DNA of 64,000 nt from Solidesulfovibrio sp. GTDB taxonomy: Bacteria > Desulfobacterota > Desulfovibrionia > Desulfovibrionales > Desulfovibrionaceae. Positions 3,039-37,744 of the stretch are shown here, one piece after another. The position numbers and the translations under genes were made by a program. The notes beneath the pieces are model-generated. The model searched no databases, was not told the origin of the DNA, and was given only the letters and a program-made list of their open reading frames with translations. The stretch's first letter is position 1. The number at the start of each line of letters is the position of its first letter. The stretch spans positions 1,847 through 65,846 of the forward strand of contig NZ_JBCFBA010000027.1 in the NCBI RefSeq assembly GCF_038562415.1, in the 5' to 3' direction.

Positions 3039-3110
3039 CCGGGGGAGGGAACCCCTTTTTGAAAAAAGGGGTTCCCTCCCCCGGACCCCCACCCTCCCGA
3101 AAAACTTTCA
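3039..3110 (+). repeat. REP-like hairpin element, headless variant (22-bp perfect stem, tail GGACCCC...AAAACTTT)
   Basis: ccgggggagggaaccccttttt-ga-aaaaaggggttccctcccccgg followed by acccccaccctcccgaaaaactttc; faces the copy at 3161-3220. Confidence 0.75.
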
Positions 3111-3160
3111 AGGGGGGGGGTGCTTGCCGCGTCTTCACGGCATCAGCCGTTAAAAGTTTT

Positions 3161-3220
3161 GGGAGGGGTCCAGGGGAACCTTTTTTCAAAAAGGTTCCCC
3201 TGGCCGCCGGAGGCATCTTC
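3161..3220 (-). repeat. REP-like element copy (GAAGATGCCTCCGGCGG head + 16-bp hairpin)
   Basis: Minus strand gaagatgcctccggcgg-ccaggggaaccttttt-ga-aaaaaggttcccctgg-acccctcccaaaactttt, 7 bp downstream of the lyase stop. Confidence 0.85.
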
Positions 3221-3227
3221 CCTCTTC

Positions 3228-4106
3228 TTACTCTCCCTTCTCAAAAAACAACTTCTCCCGCTCCCGCATAGCGGCGGCGCCGATGAAGCGGAAGTATTCC
3301 TCGAAATCGACCATGGTGTCCGGGCCGGCGAAACCGGCGCTGGTGCCATGGGCTTTAAGGTGTCCGGCCCAGGCCCGCAAGGCCCGCACGGCGGTAAAGA
3401 CCGAGGCGCAGGGGTAGGCGGCCAGGGCGTAGCCGACGTCCTGAAGCTGCGCGGCGCTCAGAAAGGGCGTGCGCCCGCCCTCGATCATGTTGGCCATGCT
3501 GGGTACGGGCACCGAGGCATTGACCGTGCGCATGTCCTCCACGGTGGTCACGGCTTCGACGAAGACCATGTCCGCGCCGGCGGCGGCGTAGAGGTTGGCC
3601 CGGCGGATGGCCTCGGCAAGGCCATGGACGGCGGCGGCGTCGGTGCGGGCCATGATGACGAAATCGGGGTCTTCCCGGGCCCAGAGCGCGGCCCTGAGCT
3701 TGGGCAGGTAGTCCTCGACGGGCACGACGGACTTGCCGGCCATGTGGCCGCAACGCTTGGGGAAGGTCTGGTCCTCGATGAAAAGCGCGGCCGCGCCCAG
3801 GCGTTCGACTTCGCGCACGGTGCGGATGACGTTGTTGACGTCGCCGAAGCCGGTGTCGATGTCGACCATGACCGGGAGGTCCACCCGGGCGATGAGGCGG
3901 GCGTAGTGGCCGAGCATTTCCGTGGCCGTGAGGAGCCCGATGTCCGGCAGGCCGAGCAGGCTGCCGGAGCTGCCGTAGCCGGCCACGGCCATGGCCTCGA
4001 AACCGGCCTCGGCGATGGCCAGGGCGGACAGGCCGTCGTGGGCCACGGGCAGCATGAGGAGCTGCGGGGCATTGACGAGTTGGCGAAACCGCGTGGTCTT
4101 TTTCAC
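3228..4106 (-). CDS. Isocitrate lyase/PEP mutase superfamily enzyme (PrpB/2,3-dimethylmalate lyase-like), 292 aa
   Basis: GTG start with GGGAGG RBS; DIDTGFG, IEDQTFPKRCGH active-site loop, ARTDA, GADMVFVE. Confidence 0.88.
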   Translation of the reverse strand: MKKTTRFRQLVNAPQLLMLPVAHDGLSALAIAEAGFEAMAVAGYGSSGSLLGLPDIGLLTATEMLGHYARLIARVDLPVMVDIDTGFGDVNNVIRTVREVERLGAAALFIEDQTFPKRCGHMAGKSVVPVEDYLPKLRAALWAREDPDFVIMARTDAAAVHGLAEAIRRANLYAAAGADMVFVEAVTTVEDMRTVNASVPVPSMANMIEGGRTPFLSAAQLQDVGYALAAYPCASVFTAVRALRAWAGHLKAHGTSAGFAGPDTMVDFEEYFRFIGAAAMREREKLFFEKGE

Positions 4107-4248
4107 CGAAACCTCCCTGATGCCCTCTGGCGAGGCGGACAGGCCCCGCCCGGTCCATGCGGCCGTCGGCCGCGCGCCCGCGTCCTCCCCTCCCCCGGCG
4201 GACGGCACGCGGGGCGAAGGGAGAACGCGGGCGGCGAACAGGACGATG

Positions 4249-6054
4249 TTAGGCGCAAAGGGGATGCGGCGGCAACTTCTCGGGGCGGCCCTTGCCCATC
4301 TGGATGGCGTGGAGACGGGCGAACTCGCCGTTTTTGGCCATGAGCTCGTCGTAGGAACCCATTTCGTGGATGCGCTGGTTCTTGATGACCAGGATCATGT
4401 CGGCCCGGCGCATCATGGACAGGCGGTGGGCGATGACGAAGGTGGTGCGGTTTTCCATGAGCCGTTCCAGGCCTTCCATGATCAGCGCCTCGGTCTCGGC
4501 GTCGAGCGCCGAGGTGGGCTCGTCGAGGATCAAAAGCGGCGAGTCCTTGAGCAGCGCCCGGGCGATGGCCAGGCGCTGGCGCTGGCCGCCGGAGAGGTTG
4601 GCGCCCTTTTCGCCGAGGATGGTGTCGTAGCCCTCGGGCAGGCCCATGATGAACTCGTGGGCGTTGGCGAGGTTCGCCACCCGCTCCACTTCCTCGCGCG
4701 TGGCCTGGCGGCGGCCGTAGGCGATGTTGTCGTGCACGGACATGGGAAACAGCTGGGTTTCCTGGAGCACGATGGCGATGCGCCGGCGCAGGCTTTTCAG
4801 CGACACGTCGCGCAGATCCTGACCGTCGATGACGATGGAGCCCTTTTGCGGATCGTAGAAGCGCAGCAAAAGGCTGATCAGCGAGGTCTTGCCGGCGCCG
4901 GTCTGGCCGACCACGGCCACGGTGGAACCGCCCCGGCAGACGAAATCGACGTCATTGAGGACCATCTTGTCGGCGCTGTAGCCGAAGCTGACCTTGTCGA
5001 AACGCACCTCGCCCCTGGTCACGACCAGGTCCGGGGCGTCGGGCTTTTCGGGCACGGCCTCGTCCACGGCCAGCACGTCCATGACGCGCCGGGCCCGGGC
5101 CAGCGAGGCCCGGATGCCGGCCACGGTGTCGCTTAAGCTATTAAGCGGCGTATACAGCGAGGCCAGGTAGGCGATGAAGACCAGCAGTTCGCCGGTGGAG
5201 AGCAGGCCGTCGAGGACGTGGCGCACGCCGATGTAGAGCACCAGCGCCGTGCCGGCGGCGGTGATGCCGGAGACCAGCCAGCCGTAGACGGTCTGCAGGG
5301 CGTACAGCGACAGCTTGCGGTCGAAGGAATGCTTGGACTCGGCCACGAACTTGCGGCGCTCCTCCTCTTCCCGGCCGAAGGCCTGGACCAGGGTGATGGA
5401 GGAGAAGATGCGCTCCACGGTGGTGTAGACCTGGGATTCCTTGAGGTGGGTCTCGGTGGTCAGGTCCCCGATCTTGCGGGAGACGCGGGAGATGGCCAGA
5501 AACAGGAACGGAATGACGCACAGGGCGTAGAGCGTCAGTTCCACGTCCATCTGCAGGCACACGGCCAGCATGCCGAGCAGCAGCGCCGTGCTCGTCAGCG
5601 TGGTGAACACGCCGTTCATGAGCAGGGTCTGCACGGCGTAGGTGTCGCCCATGATGCGGTAGATGAGGTCGCCCGTGGGCCATTTCTGGTGGAAGAGCAG
5701 CGACTGGCGCTGGAGGTGGTCGAACAGGTCGCAGCGCAAATCCTGGACCATGTCCTGGCCCATGCGGATGGTCAGGTAGTTGTTGCACAGCTGCACGAAG
5801 CCGACCAGGAAGTGGACGCCCACCAGCATGCCGACCACGCAGGCGAGCTTGAACCCGACCGACCAGACGGCCAGGTCCGGGGTCCAGCCGAAGACGTCCA
5901 GGGGCTTGCCGCCGATGATCTGGTCCACGGCGAGCTTGAGCGGCCAGGGCTTGAGAAGCTCCATGGCGCTGGCCAGGCCGACCAGGACAAGGCCCAGGAG
6001 GAACAGGTATTTGTAAGGCTTCAAATACCCGAGAAGCGTGCGGAACATGCTCAT
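4249..6054 (-). CDS. ABC exporter, fused permease/ATPase (ABCB/MsbA-like), 601 aa
   Basis: N-terminal TM helices; Walker A GQTGAGKT, signature LSGGQRQR, Walker B LILDEPTSALD, IAHRLS. Confidence 0.92.
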   Translation of the reverse strand: MSMFRTLLGYLKPYKYLFLLGLVLVGLASAMELLKPWPLKLAVDQIIGGKPLDVFGWTPDLAVWSVGFKLACVVGMLVGVHFLVGFVQLCNNYLTIRMGQDMVQDLRCDLFDHLQRQSLLFHQKWPTGDLIYRIMGDTYAVQTLLMNGVFTTLTSTALLLGMLAVCLQMDVELTLYALCVIPFLFLAISRVSRKIGDLTTETHLKESQVYTTVERIFSSITLVQAFGREEEERRKFVAESKHSFDRKLSLYALQTVYGWLVSGITAAGTALVLYIGVRHVLDGLLSTGELLVFIAYLASLYTPLNSLSDTVAGIRASLARARRVMDVLAVDEAVPEKPDAPDLVVTRGEVRFDKVSFGYSADKMVLNDVDFVCRGGSTVAVVGQTGAGKTSLISLLLRFYDPQKGSIVIDGQDLRDVSLKSLRRRIAIVLQETQLFPMSVHDNIAYGRRQATREEVERVANLANAHEFIMGLPEGYDTILGEKGANLSGGQRQRLAIARALLKDSPLLILDEPTSALDAETEALIMEGLERLMENRTTFVIAHRLSMMRRADMILVIKNQRIHEMGSYDELMAKNGEFARLHAIQMGKGRPEKLPPHPLCA

Positions 6055-6225
6055 GACAACGATCCTTGCGGGATTTCCCGCTTCGCGCCGCCGGCGGACT
6101 GGCCGCCCGCGGCCCCTCGTCGCCGGGGGCATGGCGCCCCCGGGCTCCCCGAAAGGGGAAGAAAAACGGCTGACACGACACCGCGCCGCCCCCGGTTCCC
6201 GGAGGCGGCGCGGCGGACGCAGGTC

Positions 6226-9613: not shown

Positions 9614-9630
9614 GGCGACCCCCCGTCGGT

Positions 9631-12226: not shown

Positions 12227-13933
12227 ATGTCGCAACAGGTCGTCATCATCGGAGCCGTGGCCCTTGGCCCCAAGGCCGCTTGCCGCTTCAAGCGGCTTTC
12301 CCCGGACAGCAAGGTCGTCATGCTCGACCGCGACATGCGCATTTCCTACGGCGGCTGCGGCATTCCCTACTTCGTTTCCGGCGAGGTCAGCGACGTGACC
12401 GCCCTGCAATCCACGGCCTTCCACATGGTGCGTTCGCCCGAATTCTTCCACGACGTCAAGGACGTGGAAGCCCGGGCCCAGACCGAGGCCATCGCCATCG
12501 ACCGGGCGGCCAAGACCGTGACCGCCCGCCACCTGCCCACCGGCGCCGAGGAGAAAATCCCCTACGACAAGCTGGTCATCGCCACGGGCAGCACGCCGCG
12601 CAAACTCCCCATCCCGGGGCTCGACCTGCCGGGCGTGCACGCCGTCAACAACCTGGAGGCGGCCGAGGCCATCAAGCAATCCGTGGCCGGCGGCTCGGTC
12701 GGGACCGTGGCCATCATCGGCTCGGGTTTCATCGGCCTGGAGATGGCCGTGGCCTTCGCCGACATGTGGGGCCTCGACGTCACGGTCATCGAGCTGTTCG
12801 ACCAGATCCTGCCCGGCGTGACGAACCCCACGCTCGCCGGCATGGCCCAGAGGCACATGGAGGAAAAGGGCGTGGCCTTCCGCCTGGCCGAGCAGGTCAA
12901 GGCCATCGAGGGCGACGGCCGGGTCGAGCGCGTGGTCACGGACAAGGGCACCGTCGAGGCCGACCTGGTCATCGTGTCCGTGGGCGTGGTGCCCAACGAC
13001 GCGCTGGCCAAGGCGGCCGGCCTGGAGGTTTCGGCGCGCGGCGGCATCGTGGTCGACGACCGCATGCGCACCTCGGACCCGGACATCTACGCCGGCGGCG
13101 ACTGCGTGGTGGTCAAGAACCTGGTGACCGGACAACCCATGTACCTGCCGCTCGGGTCCATGGCCAACCGGCAAGGCCGGGTGATCGGCGACAACCTGGC
13201 CGGCGGCGACTCGACCTTCGAGGGCGTGGTCGGCTCGTGGTGCGTCAAACTCTTCGACCTGGGCGCCTCGGGCACGGGCCTCACCCTGGCCGGGGCCCAA
13301 CGGGCCGGCCTCGACGCCGTGTCCACCCACATCACGGCCGTGGACCGGGCCCATTTCTACCCCGAACACGCCCTCATGTCCCTGGAACTGGTGGCCGAGC
13401 GCGGCACGCGCCGGGTGCTGGGCCTGCAGGGCCTGTCGGTCAACGGCGACGCCGTGGTCGGCAAGGTCAACACCGTGGCCGCCATGCTGCCCTACGCGCC
13501 CAAGGTGGCCGACGTGTCCAACGTGGAAGTGGCCTACTCGCCGCCCTTCGCCGCGGCCATGGACATCCTCAACACCGTGGCCAACGTGGCCGACAACATC
13601 CTGGCCGGCAAGAACAAGGGGATCACGGTCACGGAATTCGGCGAACTCTGGAAGCAGACCGACCTCGGCGACGCCTACATCCTCGACTGCCGCGAGGAGC
13701 CGCAGGGCGGGCCGCTGACGGAAAAATACCCCGGCCGCTGGCACAACATCCCCCAAGGCCAGTTGCGCGACCGCCTGGCCGAGGTGCCGCGCGACAAGAA
13801 GATCGTGCTCATGTGCAACACCGGCGCCCGCTCCTACGAGGCCCTGGTGACCCTGGCCCACATGGGCTTCGACCAGGTGGTCAGCGTCGAGGGCGGCATG
13901 GCCGCCGTCAATGCCGCCGGCATCGACGTGTAG
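12227..13933 (+). CDS. FAD-dependent CoA-disulfide/persulfide reductase-like enzyme with C-terminal rhodanese domain, 568 aa
   Basis: GAVALG FAD-binding start, SYGGCG redox Cys, GSGFIGLE, TSDPDIYAGGD, YSPPF; rhodanese LDCRE...CNTGARS. Confidence 0.85.
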   Translation: MSQQVVIIGAVALGPKAACRFKRLSPDSKVVMLDRDMRISYGGCGIPYFVSGEVSDVTALQSTAFHMVRSPEFFHDVKDVEARAQTEAIAIDRAAKTVTARHLPTGAEEKIPYDKLVIATGSTPRKLPIPGLDLPGVHAVNNLEAAEAIKQSVAGGSVGTVAIIGSGFIGLEMAVAFADMWGLDVTVIELFDQILPGVTNPTLAGMAQRHMEEKGVAFRLAEQVKAIEGDGRVERVVTDKGTVEADLVIVSVGVVPNDALAKAAGLEVSARGGIVVDDRMRTSDPDIYAGGDCVVVKNLVTGQPMYLPLGSMANRQGRVIGDNLAGGDSTFEGVVGSWCVKLFDLGASGTGLTLAGAQRAGLDAVSTHITAVDRAHFYPEHALMSLELVAERGTRRVLGLQGLSVNGDAVVGKVNTVAAMLPYAPKVADVSNVEVAYSPPFAAAMDILNTVANVADNILAGKNKGITVTEFGELWKQTDLGDAYILDCREEPQGGPLTEKYPGRWHNIPQGQLRDRLAEVPRDKKIVLMCNTGARSYEALVTLAHMGFDQVVSVEGGMAAVNAAGIDV

Positions 13934-13958
13934 CGGGGGGCGTCGGAGAGAAGTCGGG

Positions 13959-14016
13959 GAGAATGCCTCCGGCGGCCAGGAGGGGGTGACCCCCTCCTGG
14001 ACCTCCCCAAAGGGGG
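13959..14016 (+). repeat. REP-like element copy
   Basis: gagaatgcctccggcgg-ccaggaggggg-tga-ccccctcctgg-acctccccaaagggg, 25 bp after the upstream stop. Confidence 0.85.
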
Positions 14017-14365
14017 CGTTTCCGAAACGCGGGCAGGGGCTTGTCGCCATGCCCACGGTATGCCACGCAAGGGGGCCGGTCCTGGTGACCGGCCCCCTTG
14101 GTTTTGCGCCGCCCGGACAGGTCGGACGCCTCGTGAAATTAATCCCAGTCTCCTAAAATATGTTCGCCTCGGGCTTGATTCGTACTTTTTCTTGAGGTAT
14201 TCCGATTTCGTGTTACGTTTATATAAAACATGCCATTATAAGCGGACGAAATGCCATACGTTGTCCAGCAAGACCGTCTCCAACCGACGCCCGGCCGCAC
14301 CCGGCCGGGCCAGCCCCCGTCAATCCGCCCGCAAGGGAAACCCACCAACCCGTCGGAGGTCGCCT

Positions 14366-21608: not shown

Positions 21609-22612
21609 ACGCCCTGCACAACCTGGATCTGTTCGCCCAGGCCACCCTGTCCATCGTCATCGAGGCCCTGCCCTTCCTGCTGCTGGGCTCCCTGGCCTCG
21701 GGCCTGGTGGAAGCCTACGTGCCGCGCGAGCGCCTGGAGCGGCTTTTGCCCAAGGGCCGGCTGGCCGCCACCGCCTTCGGCCTGGCCCTGGGCGCGGCCA
21801 CGCCCTGCTGCGAATGCGGCGTGGTCTACCTGGCCAGGCGCCTTATGGGCAAAGGCGTGCCCCCCGGTGCGGCCATCGCCTTCATGCTGGCCGCGCCCGT
21901 GGTCAACCCCGTGTCCATCCTGTCCACCGTGGTCGCCTTCCGGGGCGACCTGTCCATGGCCGTGTGGCGCTGCCTGCTGGTCGGCACGGCCGCCCTGGTC
22001 GTGGGCTACCTGGCCGGCGGGAAAAAAACCGAAGAGCTCCTGCGGCCGCTTTCCGGCCGCGAACCCGAATGCGGCTGCGACCACGACCACGGCCCGCCGG
22101 GTCATGCCCACCACCACGGCCCGGCAACCGTCCCGGGCACGCCCTTCGGGTCGCTGGCCGACGCCATGCCCGTGGCCGCCCTGCGCCGGCGCGCGCGTCG
22201 CGAGAAAGCCGCCTCCGCCTTGCGTCACGCCATGGCCGATTTCCTGGACATGGCCAAGGTGCTGGTCTTCGGCTCCATGGTCGCGGCGGCGTTTAAGGCC
22301 TACGTGCCGGCTCCGGTCATCATGGCCATGGAAAACGACCTGGCCCTGGCCATCCCGGGCATGATGGCCCTGGCCGTGGGCCTCTCGCTGTGCTCCCAGG
22401 CCGACGCCTTCGTGGCCGCCTCGTTTTCCACCTTCCCCCTGGCGGCGCGCCTGGCCTTTTTGAGCCTCGGCCCCATGCTCGACCTCAAACTCCTGCTCAT
22501 GTGGCGCGACGTCTTCACGCCCAGGCTCGTGCGCCTGCTGGCCTTCGTGCCGGCGGCCATCGTGTTTATGGCCTGTGTCGCCTTCGGCATCGTCACGGGA
22601 GGCGCCTCGTGA
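21605..22612 (+). CDS. DUF318/UPF0718 permease with His-rich loop, 335 aa
   Basis: ATGA overlap with the upstream gene; EALPFLLLG, PCCECG, LAAPVVNP, CSQADAF, GPMLDLK; loop ECGCDHDHGPPGHAHHHG. Confidence 0.85.
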   Translation: MNALHNLDLFAQATLSIVIEALPFLLLGSLASGLVEAYVPRERLERLLPKGRLAATAFGLALGAATPCCECGVVYLARRLMGKGVPPGAAIAFMLAAPVVNPVSILSTVVAFRGDLSMAVWRCLLVGTAALVVGYLAGGKKTEELLRPLSGREPECGCDHDHGPPGHAHHHGPATVPGTPFGSLADAMPVAALRRRARREKAASALRHAMADFLDMAKVLVFGSMVAAAFKAYVPAPVIMAMENDLALAIPGMMALAVGLSLCSQADAFVAASFSTFPLAARLAFLSLGPMLDLKLLLMWRDVFTPRLVRLLAFVPAAIVFMACVAFGIVTGGAS

Positions 22613-23409
22613 AAACGCCCTTCCCCAAGGCTCTGCTGGCCCGCGTCGACGGCGCCGCCTGGCTGGCCATGGCCGGCTTCATGGCCTGGCTGCCCCTGGC
22701 CGGCGACTACTGGATGTTTCTCAATCCCAAGTTCAAACCCGTCACCCTGTCCGCGGCCATGGTCCTGGGCGTGCTGGCCGCCTACGCCTTGTGGCGGCCC
22801 GTCTCCCGGCCAAGCTGGGGGCGCTGCCTCGCCTACTGCTTCCTCGCCGCCATGGTCGGCCTGACCCACGGCGGCACCCAGGCCATCTCCGGCGAAATCG
22901 ACACCGACCCCTTCGCCGTGGCCCCCAGCCTGCCCGCCCCGCCCCCCGAAGCCGTCCCCACCCGCATGACGGCCGGCGGCAAGGAATATATTCCCATCAA
23001 CACCGGCGAACTCTTCGACATCGCCGCCAAGGGCCCCGGCGAGGCCTGGGACAAACCCTACGTCATGCGCGGCTTCGCCCGCCGCGATCCGGCCCTGGAC
23101 GCGAAAGGCGAATTCGTGCTCTTCCGCCTGGCCGTGTGGTGCTGCTTCGCCGACAGCACGGGCGTGGGCTTCAAGGTCAAACTGCCGCCCGGCGCCGAGC
23201 TCCCGGCCGACAAGGGCTGGGTCGTCGCCTACGGCCGGCTCACGGAAATGCCCGCCGACCAGCGCGGCGAATACACCCTGCCCGGCATGACCTTTTCGAG
23301 TATCGCCCCGGGCGCGCTGTTTGCCGCCGACCAGGTGGAGTCCGCCCCGGTGCCGGCCGAACAGGTCTACATGTACGAATGGCGGGTGGCGGAGCCGTAC
23401 GCGTATTAG
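22609..23409 (+). CDS. DUF1980/TIGR03943-like membrane protein (YcgQ-like partner of the DUF318 permease), 266 aa
   Basis: GTGA overlap; N-terminal TM helices (FLNPKF), C-terminal FRLAVWCCFADS motif. Confidence 0.75.
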   Translation: MKTPFPKALLARVDGAAWLAMAGFMAWLPLAGDYWMFLNPKFKPVTLSAAMVLGVLAAYALWRPVSRPSWGRCLAYCFLAAMVGLTHGGTQAISGEIDTDPFAVAPSLPAPPPEAVPTRMTAGGKEYIPINTGELFDIAAKGPGEAWDKPYVMRGFARRDPALDAKGEFVLFRLAVWCCFADSTGVGFKVKLPPGAELPADKGWVVAYGRLTEMPADQRGEYTLPGMTFSSIAPGALFAADQVESAPVPAEQVYMYEWRVAEPYAY

Positions 23410-23450
23410 GGAAGGAGAGACGGGGAGATTAGGAGAGAGGAGAGAGGAGG

Positions 23451-23505
23451 GAAGATGCCTCCGGCGGCCGGGGGGCATGATGCCCCCCGGACCCCCTCAA
23501 CGGGA
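23451..23505 (+). repeat. REP-like element copy
   Basis: gaagatgcctccggcgg-ccggggggca-tga-tgccccccgg-accccctcaacggga after a purine-rich tract. Confidence 0.85.
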
Positions 23506-23551
23506 AGGCGGGAAACGGGTGGAGGCGTGGTCGGTTGGCGGTTGTCCGTCG

Positions 23552-23623
23552 GCGAGGCCGGAATGGGGCCTTTCGGTGCCGTCGCTGCGCTCCTGGCTCG
23601 AAAGGCCCCGATTCCGGCCTCGC
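23552..23623. repeat. Long hairpin (24-bp stem, one bulge, 23-nt loop)
   Basis: gcgaggccggaatggggcctttcg ... cgaaaggccccgattccggcctcgc. Confidence 0.8.
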
Positions 23624-23778
23624 AGGGCCGTCGCCCCTTCGGGGCGAATTCTTGGACTTTAACTTTGAAAGCCTCTTTAAAGACAATGTAAAAGTTGTTC
23701 TTCAGTACAGCGCTTCGTCTAACGGCCGCCGTTCATAACTTCTTATTCTTCACATGCGGCGCTTCGCCGCTGGCGCTT

Positions 23779-23851
23779 GTGGTCGCGCAATCGCCCCGGC
23801 CGAACTGGCCGGCTTTGCGGCCTGCACCGGCCGGGGCGATTGCGCGACCAC
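23779..23851. repeat. Long hairpin (24-bp perfect stem, 25-nt loop)
   Basis: gtggtcgcgcaatcgccccggccg ... cggccggggcgattgcgcgaccac. Confidence 0.85.
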
Positions 23852-23899
23852 CACGACCGACGCCTCGCCGCTGACCGTTCCCGACCATACCTCCACCCG

Positions 23900-23956
23900 C
23901 CCCGTCGGGGAGGTCCAGGAGGGGATCATCCCCTCCTGGCCGCCGGAGGCATCTTC
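23900..23956 (-). repeat. REP-like element copy overlapping the cadR C-terminus
   Basis: Minus strand gaagatgcctccggcgg-ccaggagggga-tga-tcccctcctgg-acctccccgacgggg; the loop TGA (23926-23928) is the cadR stop. Confidence 0.88.
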
Positions 23957-24369
23957 CCCTCTTCGCCACCACCCACGTCCCGTTCCTCCAGTTCCCGCAT
24001 GATGCCGCATTCCTCCACGGGCGTGGTGCCGGTACAGCATTCCCGCAGTGCGGCCAATTGCTCGCGCAGCGCGGTGAGCCGGGCGATACGTTCGGTGATC
24101 TGGCCGATGTGCGAATCGAGCAGCACGCTCACCCCGACGCAGTCGCCGGCCGAACCGTCCTTGAGGGACAGCAGTGCCCGGATCTCGTCCAGGTTCATTT
24201 CGAGGGCCCGGCAGTTGCGGATGAAGGTCAGCCGGGCCAGGTGGCTGGCGTCGTAGAGCCGATAATTGCCGTCGGAGCGGGCCGGATCGGCGAGCAAGCC
24301 TTCCTTTTCGTAGTAGCGGACGGTATCCGGCCGACAGCCGGTGCGGCGGGCCAGTTCGCCGATGCGCAT
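23926..24369 (-). CDS. cadR: MerR-family Cd(II)/Pb(II)-responsive regulator (CadR/PbrR-like), 147 aa
   Basis: MRIGELARRTGCRPDTVRYYEKEGLL, GNYRLY, metal Cys in GDCVGV and ECC...ECGI; divergent from a P1B ATPase. Confidence 0.85.
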   Translation of the reverse strand: MRIGELARRTGCRPDTVRYYEKEGLLADPARSDGNYRLYDASHLARLTFIRNCRALEMNLDEIRALLSLKDGSAGDCVGVSVLLDSHIGQITERIARLTALREQLAALRECCTGTTPVEECGIMRELEERDVGGGEEGKMPPAARRG

Positions 24370-29308: not shown

Positions 29309-29395
29309 TCCCCGTCGCCGGCTCACGCGCGGCCCTGGAGTTTCTTGATCCGTTACAACGCGACACGCCCCGAAGCAATCGCGCCGCGTCACTTT

Positions 29396-29453
29396 CCCCC
29401 ATTGGGGAGGTCCAGGAGGGGCACTGCCCCTCCTGGCCGCCGGAGGCATCTTC
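29396..29453 (-). repeat. REP-like element copy
   Basis: Minus strand gaagatgcctccggcgg-ccaggaggggc-agt-gcccctcctgg-acctccccaatggggg, 14 bp after the carboxyltransferase stop. Confidence 0.85.
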
Positions 29454-29467
29454 TCTGCCTTTTCTCC

Positions 29468-31714
29468 CTATCGATAATACAAATTGCGGCCGCCAATCGT
29501 CAGCAGCACCTGTTTCAAATTCTTGCGGATCTCGCGGCGGTCCCAGATGCCCTGGATATGGCCCCGGGCCAGGGCGTTGTGGGCCCGGTGGTAGTCGGGC
29601 GGGATGTCGATGCCGGTGGTTTCCTTGATGACGCCCGGGCCGGCGAAGCCGATGTTGGCCGAGCGCACGGCGAACTGGTAGGGCGAGCAGCCGAGGAAAC
29701 TGGCCACCGGGCCGGCGTAGGAATTGGTGTCGTAGAGCACGACGTACAGGCCGCCGGCCTCGATGTAGCGCCGCACGGCCAGGGTGACGCGCGGCATCTG
29801 GATCAGGCCGTTGAGGCTTTCCTGGATGCGGATGCCGGCCGTGCCGTGGACGTAGGCCAGAAAGGGGAAGTGGCGCCGCCTGGCCCTGGCCAGGGCGCGG
29901 ATGAACGTCTCGCCCTCGGCCGCGCCCACCGAGCCGCCCCGGAAGGCGGAATAGAGCACGGCGGAGACGATCTTGATGCCGTCGATTTTCGCGTCGATGG
30001 ACACGCAGCCGGATTTGCGGCCGGTTTTCTGTTTGGCCGCGTCGAGCTTTTCCTCGAAGCCGGGATACTCGAGGGGATTTCCGGCCTCGATGTCGTTGTC
30101 GTGTTCCGTGACCGAACCCGGGTCGAAGACGTTGCCGAGCACCCACTGGTATTCCATGGGGAAATGGTGGCCGCAGTGGACGCACACGCCGGCGAAATCG
30201 CCGTAGAGGTCCGGGGCCCACAGGTCCGGGCAGCCGTAGGTCTTGGATTCCGGGCAGGTGACGGCCTTGTCCTCGGCGGCCTTGGGGCTCACGTAGCGCC
30301 AGCCGAAGTCCTCCAGGCAGGCGCCCTGCTCGGGCTGGGACAGCTCCACCAGCATGCGGCTTTTTTCCGGGTCGCAGGTGACCGGGGCGTTCTTGCCGCG
30401 CATGCGGCGAAGCGGCGCGGTCAGGCGATTGACCACGAGCCGGGCCTCGGCCTCCAGGTCGCCCACGGTCTTGCTGAAATTCTTGATGTGCTTGCCGATG
30501 AAGTCGTAGCGCAGGAAGGAATAGCCGCCCCACAGCAGGCTCTGGGCCCGGGAGGCGATGCGCGCGCCCGAGGGGCGGCCGTCGCGGAAGGCCGTCTCGG
30601 CCATGCGGCGGTACTTGCAGTAGCGCTTCCAGACGAGCCTGTCGGCCGCGGCCTCGTCCAGGGTCCAGCGCACGAACATCCCCTCGGCGTCGCCGTCCTT
30701 GCGCCGCGAGGCGACCAGGGCCCGGAAGAGCTTGAAGCCGGCCACACCCAGAAAGACCTGGTCCGTGGCCCGGATGACCTCCTGGCGCAGGTCCTTGAAG
30801 AACTCGTAGTGGTGGGGCCGGGCGCCCAGGTCCGGTTCGGCGACGATCTTGTCGACGTAGCCCATGCGCAGGTTGTCGGCGGCGGTGATGCGAAGCCGCC
30901 TGGCGCAGGCCTCGATGAGCTCCGGGGCCACGCGCTGGCCCTGGCGGATGCCGGCCTCGATGGCCGCCGCGCCCTCGGGGGAGATGACGGAATAGTAGCC
31001 GTGGGAGAGCATCAGGCGCACGTCGGACAGGCCGATGGCCTCGGCCCCGCCCGAGCCGCCCTCGGAAATCACCGACACCACCGGCACGCGCAGCCCCCCC
31101 ATCTCGTAGAGGTTGCGGGCGATCTGCTGGGCGGCGCCGGGGAAGTCCTCCACCGGAAAGGCCCCCGGGGTGAAGACGTAGGTGTGGATGGGGATGCGCT
31201 CGGTCTCGGCGACCTTCATGTACTGCAGGGCCTTGGCGTTGCCCCAGGGCTTGACCGAGCCGCCGTTGCGAAACTCCTGGCCGTGGCCCTTTTCCTGGCC
31301 GATGACCATGACGGGCTGGTTGACGACCTTGTCGCCCTTGCGGCGGGTGATGTAGGCCCGGGCGATGAGCATGCTCGGGTCGATGGAGTATTCGTCCTGG
31401 CCGCCGATCTCGGTGTAGTTGTCGTAGACGTTTTCCAGGATGTCCTTGAGGCTGACCCGGGCCGGATGGCGCACGATGCGCACCCGGTCCATGGGGATCA
31501 GCTCGGCGTCGAGCTTTTTTTCCAGGAAGGCGAACAGGTCCTCGAGCTGGCGCAGCATCTGGGCCAGCTCGCCGGGGGCGGCGCCTTCCCGGGCGCGCAG
31601 GTCGGCCAGGCGCGAGCGCATGAGCGCGATATTGGCGTTTTCCCGGCCGCCGAAAATGTCCTGGATGTATTGCAAGCGATCGGCCAGTTCGACCACGCGC
31701 TTTTCGATTTCCAT
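29468..31714 (-). CDS. Acyl-CoA carboxylase carboxyltransferase, alpha-beta fusion (AccA then AccD), 748 aa
   Basis: AccA half: ISEGGSGGA, YSVISPEGAAAI. AccD half: Zn-finger Cys (CPESKTYGC...CVHC), FRGGSVG, GIRIQES, IGFAGPGVI. Confidence 0.88.
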   Translation of the reverse strand: MEIEKRVVELADRLQYIQDIFGGRENANIALMRSRLADLRAREGAAPGELAQMLRQLEDLFAFLEKKLDAELIPMDRVRIVRHPARVSLKDILENVYDNYTEIGGQDEYSIDPSMLIARAYITRRKGDKVVNQPVMVIGQEKGHGQEFRNGGSVKPWGNAKALQYMKVAETERIPIHTYVFTPGAFPVEDFPGAAQQIARNLYEMGGLRVPVVSVISEGGSGGAEAIGLSDVRLMLSHGYYSVISPEGAAAIEAGIRQGQRVAPELIEACARRLRITAADNLRMGYVDKIVAEPDLGARPHHYEFFKDLRQEVIRATDQVFLGVAGFKLFRALVASRRKDGDAEGMFVRWTLDEAAADRLVWKRYCKYRRMAETAFRDGRPSGARIASRAQSLLWGGYSFLRYDFIGKHIKNFSKTVGDLEAEARLVVNRLTAPLRRMRGKNAPVTCDPEKSRMLVELSQPEQGACLEDFGWRYVSPKAAEDKAVTCPESKTYGCPDLWAPDLYGDFAGVCVHCGHHFPMEYQWVLGNVFDPGSVTEHDNDIEAGNPLEYPGFEEKLDAAKQKTGRKSGCVSIDAKIDGIKIVSAVLYSAFRGGSVGAAEGETFIRALARARRRHFPFLAYVHGTAGIRIQESLNGLIQMPRVTLAVRRYIEAGGLYVVLYDTNSYAGPVASFLGCSPYQFAVRSANIGFAGPGVIKETTGIDIPPDYHRAHNALARGHIQGIWDRREIRKNLKQVLLTIGGRNLYYR

Positions 31715-31777
31715 AGGCTGTCTTCCCGAAACGCCGTCCGGGCCGGGCGCGGGGCCGCGCGGCCCGGACGGGGCGCT

Positions 31778-33196: not shown

Positions 33197-33596
33197 GATC
33201 CGTCTTCTTGTCCTCGAGGTTGTCGGCCCTCTCCCGCGCCTTGCGCAGGTCGATGCGCCGCTTTTGAATTTCCAGGACCAGCTTGTCGAGCCAGGCTTCC
33301 TGGCGCAGGGACAGTTCCCCGAAGGCCAGCCCGGCCAATCCCCCGGTCAGGCGCACCACGGCGACGGGCAGGCCCGCGAGCAGCGTGCGCGGCCCGATGG
33401 CCAGGGTCAGGCGGCCCGTGCGGCCGGGCGCGAGCGTCCCCTCGGGATCGACCAGGGAAAGCCCCGAGGCGGACACGTCGTGGACGACGTAGTGGCGGTC
33501 GCCGCCGTCGTCCCACAAGGCAACGAGCCCCCTCACCCGTTCCCGGTGGGCGGCCCGCCGGCCCATCTCCCCTTCCAGCGTGAACGTGAAGTCCAT
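33177..33596 (-). CDS. PilZ domain protein (c-di-GMP receptor), 139 aa
   Basis: RxxxR (RAAHR) and DxSxxG (DVSASG) motifs. Confidence 0.82.
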   Translation of the reverse strand: MDFTFTLEGEMGRRAAHRERVRGLVALWDDGGDRHYVVHDVSASGLSLVDPEGTLAPGRTGRLTLAIGPRTLLAGLPVAVVRLTGGLAGLAFGELSLRQEAWLDKLVLEIQKRRIDLRKARERADNLEDKKTDRADEKT

Positions 33597-33606
33597 GCCG
33601 GCCTCC

Positions 33607-35092: not shown

Positions 35093-35201
35093 GCGCCCGT
35101 CCGTGAGGCATACGGGTTGCGAAACAGGCGCAACGGCTCGGGCCTCCCCCTTTCCCGCGCGCCGGAGCCGTGCTACCACGGCCGCGACGGGAGGAACCTA
35201 C

Positions 35202-36026
35202 ATGCACTACGGCGAGGATGTAAAGCAGGCCGTGGCGACGGCCCTGGCCGCCCTGGGCCGACCGGGGGAGCGGTGCGTGGGCCTGGTGACCGGCACGGGC
35301 CTCGGCGGCCTGGCGGCCATGCTGGACGAGGCCCGGGAAATCGCCACGGCCGAACTGCCGGGCTTTCCCCGGACCACGGCCCCGGGCCACGCCGGACGGC
35401 TGGTGGCCGGAACCGTGGGCGGCCGGGCCGTGCTGGCGCTGTGCGGCCGCCAGCACCTCTACGAGGGCCACGGCCCGCGCGAGGTGGCCTTCGGCGTCCG
35501 GCTGCTGGCCGGGCTCGGCGTCAAGACGCTCCTGCTGACCAACGCCGCCGGGGCCCTGGACCCGCATTTCACGGCCGGCGGGCTCATGCGCGTCACCGAC
35601 CACATCAACCTGACCGGGCGCAATCCCCTGACCGGCCCCAACGACGACAGCCTCGGGCCGCGCTTTCCGGACATGAGCCGGGCCTACTGCCCGCGCCTGG
35701 GGGCCATCGCCGACGCCACGGCGCTGGCCCTCGGCATCCGCCTGGAGCGCGGGGTCTACGCCGGGGTCGTGGGCCCGAGCCTGGAGACCCCGGCCGAGAC
35801 GCGCATGCTGCGGCTTTTGGGCGCCGACGCCGTGGGCATGTCCACCGTCACCGAGGTCATCGCCGCCCGGCACCTGGGGCTCGACGTGTTGGCCATCTCC
35901 TGCCTGACCAACGTCAACCTGCCGGACTGCATGGCCGAAACCACCCTCGAAACGGTCCTGGAAACGGCCCGGCGGGCCGAGGCCGACCTGGCCCGGCTGC
36001 TGGCCGCCGTCATCCCGGCCGGCTGA
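35202..36026 (+). CDS. Purine nucleoside phosphorylase (trimeric, PunA/XapA type)
   Basis: GLVTGTGLG, GHAGRL, GRQHLYEG, LTNAAG, GPSLETPAE, VGMSTVTE. Confidence 0.9.
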   Translation: MHYGEDVKQAVATALAALGRPGERCVGLVTGTGLGGLAAMLDEAREIATAELPGFPRTTAPGHAGRLVAGTVGGRAVLALCGRQHLYEGHGPREVAFGVRLLAGLGVKTLLLTNAAGALDPHFTAGGLMRVTDHINLTGRNPLTGPNDDSLGPRFPDMSRAYCPRLGAIADATALALGIRLERGVYAGVVGPSLETPAETRMLRLLGADAVGMSTVTEVIAARHLGLDVLAISCLTNVNLPDCMAETTLETVLETARRAEADLARLLAAVIPAG

Positions 36027-36092
36027 GTCCCAAGTCCCGGCCGGGCGGCCGCCAAGGGCCAGTCGCCCGGCGGCTGCCCGGCCGGGGCGGCC

Positions 36093-36779
36093 CTAGCCCA
36101 TCTTGACCTTTTCCACGAAGCCGATGCCGGCCAGGTCGCGGATGCAGGTCACGGCCTCCACGCACGACCAGTCGCAGCGCAGGGTGAAGCGGTAGGTGGA
36201 CAGGCCCTCCTTGACCTTGCTGAGGCTCAGGTTCTCGACGCTGAGCTCCCGCGAGCGGAAAAAGGCCAGCAGCTTGTCCAGGCAGTCCTCGGCCTCGCGG
36301 CAGGTGACGCTGAACACCCGGTAGGCCTCGCGGTGGATGCGGCGCTGGACGTGCTTGAGGATGGTCAGGGAGACCACGCCGAGCACGGTGCAGGCCACGG
36401 GGATGAGGATCATGCCGGCCCCGAGCGCCATGCCGACGCCGGCGTTGAACCACAGCGTGGCCGCCGTGGTCAGGCCCCGGATGCTGCCCTTGTCCTTGAT
36501 GATCACCCCCGCGCCGAGAAACCCGACGCCGGTGACGATCTGCGCCCCGATGCGCGACGGGTCGAGCCCCAGGGGGATGGCGCCCGGGTCCTCGCCGGAG
36601 AGGTAATAGAAATACTTGGAGATGACCATCATGAGGGCCGAGCCCAGGCAGACCAGCAGGTTGGTGCGCAGGCCGGCGCTGATGCCGTGGCGCTCCCGCT
36701 CGTAGCCCAGGATCGAGCCGCACACCACCGCCAGGACCAGGCGCAGCAGCAGTTGCGCTTCATGCGGATACCCGTTCAT
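36093..36779 (-). CDS. MgtC/SapB family membrane protein, 228 aa
   Basis: LGYERE, AGLRTN, DPSRIGAQIVTGVGFLGAG, GLTTAATLW. Confidence 0.92.
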   Translation of the reverse strand: MNGYPHEAQLLLRLVLAVVCGSILGYERERHGISAGLRTNLLVCLGSALMMVISKYFYYLSGEDPGAIPLGLDPSRIGAQIVTGVGFLGAGVIIKDKGSIRGLTTAATLWFNAGVGMALGAGMILIPVACTVLGVVSLTILKHVQRRIHREAYRVFSVTCREAEDCLDKLLAFFRSRELSVENLSLSKVKEGLSTYRFTLRCDWSCVEAVTCIRDLAGIGFVEKVKMG

Positions 36780-36898
36780 GGACGCACCCCCGTTCGGTTG
36801 GGCCGGCCGGTACGGCTGCGACCGTGCGGCCGCCCTTTTCCGAGGCCTGTCCCATCCGGGCCGCCACGTCAAGTCGTCGTGAGAAATCTACCGGAATT

Positions 36899-37624
36899 TC
36901 AGGAAGTTTTCCGGCCTCCCCGGGGATCGGGCCGGCGCAGGCGGTCGGCGGCGACCGGAGCGGAAGCCGGATAGATGGGATTGGCCCGGGTCCACCAGCC
37001 GTCCACGGGCGCGGCGGCGAATTCCAGGCGCCCGATGTACTTGGCGCCCTTGTAGGCCAGGTCGAAGGGGCACACCAGGCGCAACGGCGCGCCGTGGTCG
37101 ATGGGCAAGGGCTCGCCGGCCAGGGTCAGGGCCAGCAGGTAGGCCAGGTCGGGGTCGAGGAGGTCGGCCAGGGGCAGGCACTCGACATAATGGTCCAGGC
37201 CCCCCGGGCGCGAGCGGGTCCGGCCGAGGCTGTGGAAGACGACGTAGCGGGCCTCGGGCGCCGGGCCGGCCAGGTCGGCCAGGGTTTTCAGGCGCAGGCC
37301 GCCCCAGGCCAGGTCGGCCACGGACCAGCCCTCGACACAATGGAAATCCGAAACCTGCCGCTCCTGGGGCAGGGCCGCAAGGGCGTCGTAGGCCAGGCGC
37401 AACGGCCGGGCGACCAGCCCGTCCACGACCAGGGCGTAGGGCGTTGGCGGGCCCTTGTCGTGGGTCACCACCCCCTTGGCCGGGTCGAAGCCGAAATCCT
37501 CGACCTCCACGGCGCGCACGGGAAAAAACGAGACGAACCGGGCCCAGGCCTCGCCGGCGAAACGGCCGCAAAGCGCCGCCCCGGCCACGAACACCAAAAA
37601 CACCCTTCGCGTGATTCCTGCCAT
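36899..37624 (-). CDS. Tat-exported molybdopterin-dependent oxidoreductase (sulfite oxidase/MsrP family), 241 aa
   Basis: TRRVFL Tat-like signal; DFHCVEGWS Mo-ligating Cys; HGAPLRLV; YKGAKY; GWW. Confidence 0.85.
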   Translation of the reverse strand: MAGITRRVFLVFVAGAALCGRFAGEAWARFVSFFPVRAVEVEDFGFDPAKGVVTHDKGPPTPYALVVDGLVARPLRLAYDALAALPQERQVSDFHCVEGWSVADLAWGGLRLKTLADLAGPAPEARYVVFHSLGRTRSRPGGLDHYVECLPLADLLDPDLAYLLALTLAGEPLPIDHGAPLRLVCPFDLAYKGAKYIGRLEFAAAPVDGWWTRANPIYPASAPVAADRLRRPDPRGGRKTS

Positions 37625-37686
37625 AGGGAGACTCCTTCTCCCCATGTACGCGACATCCGCCCCTCGAAGCAATCAAAACCCCACTT

Positions 37687-37744
37687 CCCGTACGGGGAGG
37701 GTCCGGGAGGGGGTCACCCCCTCCCGGCCGCCGGAGGCATCTTC
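37687..37744 (-). repeat. REP-like element copy overlapping the PqqD-like gene C-terminus
   Basis: Minus strand gaagatgcctccggcgg-ccgggaggggg-tga-ccccctcccgg-accctccccgtacggga; the loop TGA (37714-37716) is the gene stop. Confidence 0.88.

Follow-up and report, generated by a model that had tools for sequence, protein, structure and literature searches.

The REP and BIME sequences of Enterobacteria and Pseudomonas, with the REPIN-RAYT systems among them, are short, G/C-rich palindromes present in hundreds of copies. They are extragenic, found at the 3′ ends of genes or where two genes converge, and keep away from divergent promoters. A conserved tag sits on one side of the stem, and the units join other motifs into mosaics and inverted pairs. 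The repeat family of Solidesulfovibrio described here has all of these properties, including the BIME-type combination of REP units and other conserved motifs in alternating orientation. The differences are as follows. In REP/REPIN-RAYT systems a single-copy Y1 (HUH) transposase gene is flanked by the repeats, whereas the Solidesulfovibrio family is without one. The REP tag is GTAG (or CGTC) beside the stem and is conserved within a species group; here, an 11-nt head, GCCTCCGGCGG, precedes the stem and is conserved across a whole bacterial family. GTAG is enriched in the Solidesulfovibrio family solely as the last base plus stop codon of a gene, 7–47 nt upstream. Finally, unlike REP, the Solidesulfovibrio repeat is placed in a polar manner, with its head touching stop or start codons.

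A second group, BoxC/PIT/TMECO, is built on the same plan. TMECO is an intrastrand triplex motif whose loci are more rearranged than control loci, with no strand bias and no fixed ORF distance (Holder et al. 2015, PMC4666352). Both BoxC/PIT/TMECO and the Solidesulfovibrio repeat consist of three G/C-rich homopurine/homopyrimidine blocks, two of which form a hairpin while the third mirrors an arm. Both are intergenic, often in inverted pairs, lack a mobile-element gene, and sit at places that vary, or have been rearranged, from one relative to another. The block order, however, is C-block, G-block, G-block in TMECO but purine arm, pyrimidine arm, pyrimidine tail (sense strand) here, and the TMECO consensus, CCCTCNCCC-N3-6-GGGNGAGGG-N3-GGGNGAGGG, differs from our repeat in sequence as well. 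TMECO is also without the head, the strand bias and the stop-codon contact, all three of which the Solidesulfovibrio repeat has. Judged by sequence and block order, the two are different families of the same architecture.

Three other groups bear comparison. The CGTC-tagged palindromic repeats, a REP-like superfamily, likewise yielded no dedicated repeat-flanked transposase, but their tag differs from the Solidesulfovibrio head, and Desulfovibrio is not mentioned in their description (Di Nocera et al. 2013, PMC3733652). Intrinsic terminators likewise place a stable G/C hairpin just past genes, but theirs is followed by a U-tract and ours by ACCUCCCC; with no U-tract, and with main hairpins that terminator scans do not flag, a canonical terminator was rejected. 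MITEs, derived from DDE transposases, are marked by terminal inverted repeats, a target-site duplication and a related full-length IS. Our mosaics have inverted ends; no duplication was seen, no transposase sits among or next to the heads, and the spacers that form the outer ends vary. No published description of the hairpin family was found, and no paper in which the motif string appears in a relevant setting or in which Desulfovibrio or Solidesulfovibrio is treated together with REP or RAYT. Rfam gave no gathering-score match in the 64-kb window, and a permissive search returned only sub-threshold hairpin noise. The family appears to be an undescribed relative of the E. coli REP and BoxC repeats, the function of which we infer.

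The copies in the window and the anatomy of the unit

The window is the whole 64,000-nt stretch of Solidesulfovibrio DNA that was analysed. An initial annotation, made from its letters, had reported six full copies and one headless copy of a REP-like hairpin family, and all seven are there (Table 1). In each of the six, a purine-rich lead-in precedes the head, a perfect hairpin with a stem of 10–15 bp follows the head directly, and a tail, ACC(T/C)CCCC, follows the hairpin. The six ORFs upstream are real genes according to Pfam and share the orientation of the element, as had been claimed. The heads lie 11–45 nt past the stop, and the MerR and PqqD reading frames continue across the head as far as the loop TGA. 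The headless unit, which retains the hairpin and C-rich tail, is antisense to both flanking genes, and with copy 1 it forms a tail-to-tail inverted pair ahead of the start of the next gene (3015). Downstream of copy 2, at an estimated ~14085–14125, there is a terminator-like U-tract hairpin (gggggccggtc...gaccggccccc ttggtttt).

Table 1. Repeat units in the window, with their parts and the Pfam-identified genes that they follow.
Feature	Positions	Strand	Parts	Gene upstream
Headless unit	3039-3110	+	long hairpin CCGGGGGAGGGAACCCC...GGGGTTCCCTCCCCCGG; C-rich tail ACCCCCACCCTCCC	
Copy 1	3162-3227	-	lead-in 3217-3227; head 3204-3216; 15-bp hairpin 3170-3203; tail ACCCCTCC 3162-3169	PEP mutase (3228-4208, -); copy 11 nt past stop
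Copy 2	13934-14008	+	G/A-rich lead-in 13934-13962; head 13963-13975; 11-bp hairpin 13976-14000; tail ACCTCCCC 14001-14008	pyridine-nucleotide oxidoreductase/rhodanese (12227-13933); follows TAG
Copy 3	23410-23498	+	mosaic left end; 45-nt purine lead-in; head 23455-23467; hairpin 23468-23490; tail ACCCCCTC	DUF1980 (22609-23409); follows TAG
Mosaic interior	23499-23906		shared module GGGTGGAGGCGTGGTCGG...; two long hairpins; AT-rich centre	
Copy 4	23907-23962	-	mosaic right end; head 23940-23952; hairpin 23915-23939; tail 23907-23914	MerR/CadR (23926-24369, -); no stop of its own, reads through head and ends at loop TGA
Copy 5	29404-29467	-	lead-in 29450-29467; head 29437-29449; hairpin 29412-29436; tail 29404-29411	ACC carboxyltransferase (29468-31714, -); follows TAG
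Copy 6	37695-37790	-	head 37728-37740; hairpin 37703-37727; tail 37695-37702	PqqD-like (37714-38169, -); reads through GA-rich lead-in and head to loop TGA

The unit, of ~55–60 nt, reads (G)GGAAGAT-GCCTCCGGCGG for the head, then a perfect 10–11-bp G/C hairpin with a purine 5′ arm, and then a C-rich tail, which is ACCTCCCC, ACCCCCTC or ACCACCCC. The 13-nt head, ATGCCTCCGGCGG, had been called invariant. This holds for the 11-nt core, whereas the leading AT varies across the genome (AT 112, AA 28, AG 26 and AC 13 before the core). The stems comprise 68 discrete perfect palindromes with a common outer stem, CC(A/G)GG(A/G)GGG; the commonest hairpin class is CCGGGGGGCATGATGCCCCCCGG, with 25 copies. 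Whole-element RNAs are predicted to fold at −40 to −53 kcal/mol.

Some units stand solo and some carry a second hairpin; others form outward-facing pairs that bound ~500-bp mirror mosaics, which occupy entire intergenic regions. Most copies in the studied genome are single, and outward-facing pairs (mosaics of 330–550 bp) are also present. The mosaic parts come in mirror order, namely the head, the hairpin classes, the second hairpins, the GGGTGGAGGCGTGGTCGG module, the long hairpins and the AT-rich centre. The interior of the ~500-bp mosaic in the window is a dispersed repeat in its own right: the genome has at least five complete copies of it, and G021, the closest complete genome, ~20 matching places.

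The tail mirrors the 3′ arm, with a score of 5.93 against 5.29 ± 0.06 when permuted, and the parallel-complement match run is 4.98 against 3.06 ± 0.11 permuted (195 distinct arm/tail combinations). The length of the arm G-run equals that of the tail C-run. The resulting purine/pyrimidine/pyrimidine layout, in which the third block mirrors a hairpin arm, is that of the intrastrand-triplex repeats. An RNA triplex in vivo is doubtful, given the weakness of C+·G-C triplets at neutral pH. That the purine lead-in pairs with the C-rich tail was rejected, as the pairing showed no gain over permuted pairs (4.68 vs 4.67). The hairpin family of the initial annotation stands; the mirror tail, the mosaic organisation and the TAG preference described below were absent from it.

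The covarying stem had been taken as a sign of selection on structure, an argument that turns out to be weak. The stem pairs number 1835 Watson–Crick, 4 G-T, 10 A-C and 4 other; that is, they are 99% Watson–Crick, intermediates are almost absent, and there is no wobble asymmetry. Subfamily copying, gene conversion or quasi-palindrome correction explain such stems no less well than RNA-level selection. In stems that are 99% perfect, a G-U versus A-C asymmetry is uninformative as a marker of the transcribed strand, and, with no excess of G-U over A-C, the sense RNA is not positively marked as the selected form.

Spread of the family and placement at gene boundaries

The genome-wide count puts the six copies in a family far above chance, as the 5.07-Mb genome contains 112 exact copies of the 13-mer ATGCCTCCGGCGG, against 0.76 expected under a zero-order model. 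The core GCCTCCGGCGG occurs 210 times, in ~168 cases with a perfect hairpin. The family extends beyond the source genome, and the head is common to most Desulfovibrionaceae genera: of the 151 Desulfovibrionaceae genomes sampled, 100 contain the core plus hairpin start, at up to 325 copies, and they represent 52 of 72 genera, while a reversed-pattern control across the same genomes gave 0–2 matches. Among ~240 genomes from other families of the phylum, the motif is at background, 0–4 per genome. The repeat family is real and restricted to the Desulfovibrionaceae.

With polarity scored on our own gene calls, 133 of the 168 headed hairpins lie in the sense orientation after a stop codon, at a median distance of 25 nt. 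A dispersed, REP-like family at gene 3′ ends had thus been correctly recognised, but the sense orientation is not universal, since 35 hairpins are antisense. Many antisense copies lie 3–12 nt from a start codon, and in 14 of the 35 the complement of the head supplies a Shine–Dalgarno-like GGAGG 4–13 nt before it. Where both neighbours of a copy were called (133 copies), the intergenic context is co-directional in 95, convergent in 35 and divergent in 3, against a background of 1711, 319 and 484, respectively (chi-square p ~1e-9). Convergent regions are enriched ~2-fold, and divergent (promoter-only) regions are avoided. In a second genus, G073, the head likewise contacts the stop, at 0–30 nt. 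The head end of the element abuts ORF boundaries, stop codons in the sense orientation and start codons in the antisense.

Between stop and head lies a purine-only, C-depleted spacer of 7–47 nt (merely 0–14 nt in G073), which extends into the last codons of the gene. The first 20 nt past the stop are 79% purine with an element versus 48% in other genes, the base before the stop is C in 10% versus 47%, and a shortage of C at third codon positions reaches back to about −13 in the upstream ORF. The stop before the element is TAG in 64% versus 39% of controls, and the last base plus stop is GTAG in 39% versus 12%. By a hand count, TAG also predominates in G073. This preference is not predicted by a pure RNA-stability role.

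Turnover, possible mobility and proposed function

We propose, at about an even chance of being right, that these are REP/BIME-like, triplex-type modular repeats native to the Desulfovibrionaceae, without a known transposase, which act as RNA 3′-end barriers and insulators. The elements are most likely transcribed, and may affect 3′ ends and RNA stability. The element would be co-transcribed with the upstream gene, and its very stable hairpin, perhaps reinforced by the tail, would block 3′-to-5′ exonucleases and insulate neighbouring ORFs. The purine-only, C-depleted spacer would prevent mispairing of the G-rich arm and hold the hairpin clear of the ribosome at termination. In flipped copies, the head may have been co-opted as a Shine–Dalgarno sequence. 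Copies would spread and be homogenised, without a RAYT, via ectopic recombination or template switching between copies; transposase-free spreading is the default here, reasoned rather than observed. An Hfq platform was rejected, as tblastn found no Hfq; CsrA and Rho are encoded.

The orthologous sites tell of turnover. At the copy-2 site, 8 congeners carry an element, in 5 hairpin variants, and 7 carry none; at the empty sites homology stops at the stop codon, and in congeners without the element the downstream T-run terminator is the only structure there. Copy 5 is at the same site in three congeners, with an identical head and different hairpins, and copy 6 has counterparts at its site in G021 and G002, which differ in hairpin variant. 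For both copies, hairpin and spacer differ from those of the congeners despite flanks that are 82–94% identical. In G021, cadR ends in a TGA of its own and is without the element, and synteny with G021 breaks exactly at the mosaic. The element is gained and lost between species, and at conserved sites the head stays identical while hairpin class and spacer are replaced.

Such turnover would also suit an active, selfish, non-autonomous mobile element without host function, moved by a non-RAYT enzyme that inserts 3′ of (G)TAG. The survivors would be insertions at stop codons or those donating a Shine–Dalgarno sequence at start codons, and beside the solo units the ~500-bp mosaics would be MITE-like, with the head in their inverted ends. 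The polymorphism with homology ending at the stop codon, the TAG and GTAG preference in both genera, the many identical copies in each hairpin class, the outward-facing pairs 430–550 bp apart that are common in G073, and the breaking of assemblies at copies are all in its favour. The search for an enzyme argues otherwise. The sole Y1 transposase of the genome (PF01797) belongs to an ordinary IS200, in an AT-rich island and with its own unrelated hairpins; among the 151 Desulfovibrionaceae genomes Y1 genes do not track motif counts, and high-copy relatives are without Y1. On these grounds a RAYT as driver was rejected; the initial annotation had seen no such transposase in the window. A DUF559 nuclease partner was also rejected, the only PF04480 signal being a 20-bit stretch inside a 2166-aa frame. 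No transposase, nuclease or paralogous gene was found beside or between copies, and no gene family is enriched beside or between heads, the neighbours being housekeeping genes, e.g., hisH/hisF, glpX and leuD. Moreover, 36% of the stops are not TAG, no target-site duplication is seen, the left end, formed by the purine spacer, is not constant in length or sequence as a transposon terminus would be, and the different variants per species at the copy-2 site need repeated hits or inter-copy conversion. We consider a selfish element unlikely, albeit with an appreciable chance.

The mirror-tail rule, the perfect pairing of the stems on either strand, free of wobble bias, and the synteny break at the mosaic, to which the rearrangement of TMECO loci relative to control loci (PMC4666352) may be added, would be expected of a DNA element with overlapping cruciform and intrastrand-triplex (H-DNA-like) motifs, acting on supercoiling, replication or recombination as has been suggested for BoxC/PIT/TMECO, whose polarity just follows gene orientation. 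Yet 79% of the copies are sense and the head touches the stop, whereas TMECO is without strand bias or fixed ORF distance (PMC4666352), and the strand-specific purine spacer, reaching into synonymous sites, points to a constraint at the level of the transcript or the single strand. A DNA-level element is improbable.

A Rho-linked insulator against antisense or read-in transcription would make use of the opposite strand of the spacer, C/U-rich and G-free, as a Rho loading site past the hairpins. Sense C depletion is G depletion in the antisense RNA, from about −13 in the ORF through the spacer; convergent regions are enriched, Rho is encoded, and E. coli BIMEs reportedly cause Rho-dependent attenuation (Espeli 2001). 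But rut sites typically span 60–80 nt, more than this tract, the more so in G073, and the conserved head is left unexplained. We find this reading very doubtful.

Finally, we regard it as extremely improbable that the SD-like purine tract and the head AUG start a mini-ORF, MPPAARRG-stop (loop TGA), that reloads ribosomes after termination or melts the hairpin: 91 of 133 sense copies have AT before the core, versus 12 of 35 antisense ones, loop TGA is present in 72 of 168 headed hairpins (in frame for several classes, read by eye), and the predicted folds put the AUG in the loop of a GGAGG-N7-CCUCC helix, but a third of sense copies have no ATG, the CCGGGGGGCATGATGCCCCCCGG, GATAATC and GATGATC classes have no in-frame stop, so that a conserved mini-ORF was rejected, and in genus g59 the head stands in a different context with no purine tract.

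Implications for the Desulfovibrionaceae

The 3′-end barrier that we favour sits uneasily with the conservation of the head. The 11-nt head is identical across 52 genera, beyond the needs of a passive exonuclease barrier, which implies a conserved partner, be it a protein, the ribosome or the recombination machinery. It is tempting to propose that head and purine spacer, rather than being a repeat that is just tolerated, serve the whole family as a signal in cis, which a conserved host machine reads where ORFs begin or end. They would then be a new kind of gene-boundary element, although we give this only a small chance. If true, one form would be a stop-anchored module tuned to UAG/RF1 termination or ribosome release; another would be a directional insulator, with Rho loaded onto RNA that reads in antisense and a triplex-capped hairpin protecting the sense 3′ end. 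The signal would have spread through copy-to-copy recombination across the Desulfovibrionaceae.

Sulfate-reducing Desulfovibrionaceae matter in corrosion, the gut and sediments, and their non-coding repeats are apparently undescribed in the searchable literature. The practical effects of the family are that protein C-termini are rewritten (CadR, PqqD), a synteny break is marked and short-read assemblies are broken. Several strains amenable to laboratory work carry the repeat. The family connects REP-like repeats with the unexplained BoxC/TMECO triplex motifs, and it indicates that a REP-type repeat can persist family-wide without a RAYT, its 11-nt tag unchanged. The rules of its placement, that is, stop contact, TAG preference, the C-free spacer and Shine–Dalgarno donation, suggest a coupling to translation or RNA processing at gene boundaries.

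Anatomy of the element and covariation of its parts

The initial annotation had recognised six full copies of a repeat in the window, and the exact 13-mer ATGCCTCCGGCGG is indeed present there six times, at the places assigned to them. All six copies share one layout, as follows. A purine-rich lead-in, or spacer, precedes the head, a perfect hairpin with a stem of 10–15 bp follows the head directly, and a C-rich tail reading ACCTCCCC, ACCCCCTC, ACCCTCCC, or ACCCCTCC completes the element. No copy of the family lies between 38000 and 64000, the final 26 kb of the window; from about 48 kb on, the G+C content is lower, at 61–65% versus 66–70%.

Features of the repeat family in the window
Feature	Coordinates	Strand	Remark
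Copy 1	3162..3227	-	
Copy 2	13934..14008	+	
Copy 3	23410..23498	+	
Copy 4	23907..23962	-	
Copy 5	29404..29467	-	
Copy 6	37695..37790	-	
CadR/MerR gene	23926-24369	-	repeat-encoded C-terminus ...KMPPAA(R/G)RG
PqqD-like gene	37714-38169	-	repeat-encoded C-terminus ...KMPPAA(R/G)RG
Mirror mosaic	23451-23956		~500 bp, fills the entire gap between two convergent genes
Motif GATTGCTTCG(R)GGGCG...GTCGCG(T)T	~29350-29381	-	downstream of copy 5, before the next gene
Motif GATTGCTTCG(R)GGGCG...GTCGCG(T)T	~37645-37674	-	downstream of copy 6, before the next gene

The genome to which the window belongs (5.07 Mb in 51 contigs, 66% G+C) contains 112 copies of the 13-mer, for 0.76 expected from base composition. 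The true core of the head is GCCTCCGGCGG, found 210 times and preceded by AT in 112 cases, AA in 28, AG in 26, and AC in 13. A perfect hairpin lies immediately 3′ of about 168 of these cores; the other cores are degraded, adjoin assembly artefacts, or match by chance within coding sequence. Contig ends, N-gaps, and runs of poly-G are concentrated at the elements or within 100–300 nt of them (for example, at C9:104914 and C48:9622 and, further, at C39:2509 and C47:363167). Short-read assembly is evidently broken by the hairpins and by the mosaics, so that the copy counts in this genome are lower bounds.

The 168 copies carry 68 distinct hairpins, all with CC(A/G)GG(A/G)GGG as their outer stem, the largest classes comprising 25, 16, and 12 identical copies. 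When parsed for the maximal stem, the loop has 3 nt in 147 copies, 72 of which have TGA. Ninety-nine percent of the stem pairs are Watson–Crick (1835, along with 4 G-T, 10 A-C, and 4 others). The full compensation that had been taken as a sign of selection on structure is real, but with intermediates nearly absent and wobble pairs showing no bias, it is not in itself proof of selection on an RNA. Subfamily copying, gene conversion, or quasi-palindrome correction would each yield the same picture of the stems.

The tail covaries with the stem in a mirror-wise manner: GGAGGGG goes with CCTCCCC, GGGAGGGG with CCCTCCCC, GGAGAGG with CCTCTCC, and GAGGGC with CTCCC. G-runs of 1–4 in the arm have C-runs of equal length in the tail in nearly all of the ~108 distinct combinations (5.93 observed vs. 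5.29 ± 0.06 in permuted arm/tail pairs), and the mirror tail recurs across many species (195 combinations, 4.98 vs. 3.06 ± 0.11). No covariation between lead-in and tail is apparent (4.68 vs. 4.67 in permuted pairs). Judged from its sequence, the element, in which a purine arm and a pyrimidine arm enclose the loop and, after a short turn, a pyrimidine tail runs parallel to the former arm, has the layout expected of an intramolecular triple helix, and the opposite strand would present the purine-motif version. The BoxC/PIT/TMECO repeats of E. coli, which are intergenic, often occur as inverted pairs, lie at loci that vary between strains, and are without a known mobile-element gene, form a triplex in vitro (PMC4666352). 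These repeats are defined by the same arm-mirroring logic as the Desulfovibrionaceae element but differ from it in sequence and block order, and TMECO lacks the head, the strand bias, and the contact with ORFs.

In RNA folding of the six window copies, the main hairpin always forms, with totals of -40 to -53 kcal/mol; in several folds, the head’s CCUCC also pairs with GGAGG-like purines in a small helix whose loop holds the AUG. The hairpins are not of the U-tract terminator type, and identity with such terminators is rejected.

Placement relative to genes

Genes were called with a log-likelihood codon model, for which the genome’s long ORFs served as the training set (4025 genes, 83% coding), and all 10 of the ORFs flanking the window copies were confirmed by Pfam. 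In the window, the head lies 11–45 nt past the stop, except at the MerR/CadR and PqqD-like genes, whose ORFs extend through the head and end at the loop TGA. The initial annotation held that the element is always in the sense orientation. This is so in the window, where each of the six copies points the same way as the gene upstream, but across the genome the rule, though strong, has exceptions: 133 of the 168 headed hairpins are sense to the gene on the head side, and 35 are antisense. Sense cores lie a median of 25 nt past the stop codon, and no more than 100 nt past it in 124 of the 133 cases. For 14 of the 35 antisense copies, the core is 3–12 nt from the start codon of an opposite-strand gene, and hence the head’s complement, CCGCCGGAGGC, places GGAGG 4–13 nt before that start. 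One rule therefore covers both orientations: the head faces an ORF, and the hairpin points away from it. Spacing on the tail side is less strict, the next gene lying at a median of 130–200 nt. About 50 headless hairpin-plus-tail units have the polarity of the headed copies when the tail sets the orientation.

Both neighbours were called for 133 copies, which lie between co-directional genes in 95 cases (69 sense, 26 antisense), convergent genes in 35, and divergent genes in 3; in the background, these classes comprise 1711, 319, and 484 intergenic regions, respectively (chi-square ~40, 2 df, by hand calculation).

The first 20 nt past the stop are 79% purine in element-bearing genes versus 48% in others, and half of the former, versus 0.7% of the latter, reach at least 85%. 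The purine spacer is part of the element’s context and no general trait of 3′ flanks. Directly ahead of the core its consensus is GGGAAGAT; farther away, conservation is limited to base composition, and the short tandem repeats of which many spacers consist suggest slippage. The bias extends into the gene: C occupies the base before the stop in 10% of element-bearing genes versus 47% of controls, and third-position C is depleted inside the ORF back to about -13. Such a constraint, falling on synonymous sites of the adjacent gene, is an argument that selection acts on the transcript or on a single DNA strand. Stops ahead of the element are TAG in 64%, TAA in 19%, and TGA in 17% of cases, versus 39%, 20%, and 41% among control genes that lack the element and have ≥80 nt of flanking sequence (p = 7e-7), and the share of GTAG is 39% versus 12%.

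Distribution and turnover

A scan for the head and the hairpin start, with one genome per species, matched Solidesulfovibrio alcoholivorans, S. aerotolerans, S. magneticus MAGs, Solidesulfovibrio sp. DCME, and Desulfovibrionaceae MAGs, and the tested locus was matched by 25 of 25 genomes of the window’s genus. The pattern GCCTCCGGCGGSCNRG, run with a reversed-pattern control over 151 Desulfovibrionaceae genomes, is present in 100 of them and in 52 of 72 genera, at a few to 325 copies per genome (control, 0–2). Of the 251 genomes sampled phylum-wide, the ~240 that belong to other families gave 0–4 matches each, not above control. It follows that the head is a family-level feature of the Desulfovibrionaceae, a depth of conservation unusual for a REP-type tag.

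The context of the head varies among genera. In G073, a genome of a second genus with 205 copies, the head is 0–30 nt past stops, some with TAG abutting GCCTCC directly; TAG predominates there as well (~12 of 17, hand count from the listing), and many copies form outward-facing pairs 430–550 bp apart. In another genus, g59 (genomes G132 and G165; L166, L170, and L176), there is no purine spacer; a conserved 45-nt module, CTACGAAGAC...CGATTTCGTTAT, precedes the head, in units of 88–92 nt arranged in tandem. In G069, the match coordinates place repeats of the head pattern at a 25–27-nt spacing.

At the site of copy 2, downstream of an oxidoreductase gene, eight congeners have an element with the same head, five hairpin variants, and unrelated purine spacers. 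In seven others there is no element; homology ends at the stop codon, and the only structure is a T-run terminator, which the window keeps downstream of its element. The site of copy 5 is filled in G021, the closest complete genome, and in the congeners G002 and G012, and that of copy 6 in G021 and G002; heads are identical and hairpins and spacers differ, with flanks 82–94% identical. The cadR gene of G021 has its own TGA (...GGGGD-TGA) and no element, and in the window that stop is lost and the loop TGA is borrowed; the window’s CadR tail is therefore a recent by-product of the repeat. The G021 stop is nevertheless followed (L156, ~540–600) by a run rich in G, GGGGGAGGGGGGGG, and by the small hairpin CCCCGC-ATGA-GCGGGG, which could be a degenerate or a different unit.

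Two outward heads bound the mirror mosaic, and its interior holds the shared module GGGTGGAGGCGTGGTCGG, an AT-rich centre with TTCTTCACATGCGGCGCTTCGCCGCTGGCGC, and two long hairpins. It is itself a dispersed repeat, with ~20 matching places in G021, and synteny between the window and G021 breaks exactly at it. Similar mosaics occur in other genera, with a GTGAAGAA/TTCTTCAC-like centre motif in the three inspected in G073. Taken together, the sequence comparisons show gain and loss on the time scale of species, with the head kept constant while the variable modules are exchanged, a pattern compatible with copy-to-copy conversion or with repeated re-insertion at favoured sites. The GATTGCTTCG-type motif at the loci of copies 5 and 6 is conserved in congeners and may be a promoter or an operator.

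Partner gene and possible roles

The absence of a RAYT-type partner, reported for the window, extends to the genome. Its one Y1/HUH transposase gene is a standard IS200 (C47:85989-86342, outside the window), which carries subterminal hairpins of its own and sits beside fragments of another transposase within an AT-rich island; the motif does not flank it, and it has no relation to the repeat family. Nor do motif counts follow the number of Y1 genes in the 151 genomes: a genome without any Y1 gene reaches 325 copies, for example, and 0–4 copies are found where there are 10–15 such genes. No paralogous family is enriched beside or between heads, where the neighbours are housekeeping genes. No DUF559 nuclease partner was found either: the one signal in the genome is a 20-bit stretch within a 2166-aa frame. 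No description of the family was found in the literature searched and no matching family in Rfam; the initial annotation likewise knew of no characterisation. That the element is a REP/BIME-like, triplex-type repeat family of the Desulfovibrionaceae, without a detectable transposase partner, is well supported.

The most economical reading of its function, we infer, is that of a transcribed boundary module. The very stable hairpin would block 3′ exonucleases and insulate ORFs, the C-free spacer would guard hairpin folding and keep the hairpin away from the ribosome as it terminates, and in flipped copies the head would be recruited as a Shine–Dalgarno sequence. The boundary module leaves the extreme conservation of the head and the preference for TAG unexplained, and so four rivals remain. 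The repeat may be a selfish element with (G)TAG as its target; it may have a DNA-level triplex or cruciform role, by analogy with that proposed for TMECO; or it may be a Rho-loading tract acting on antisense read-in. A mini-ORF device is the least likely.

The family is a variant among the REP/BIME and BoxC-type repeats, and its placement rules merit experiment.
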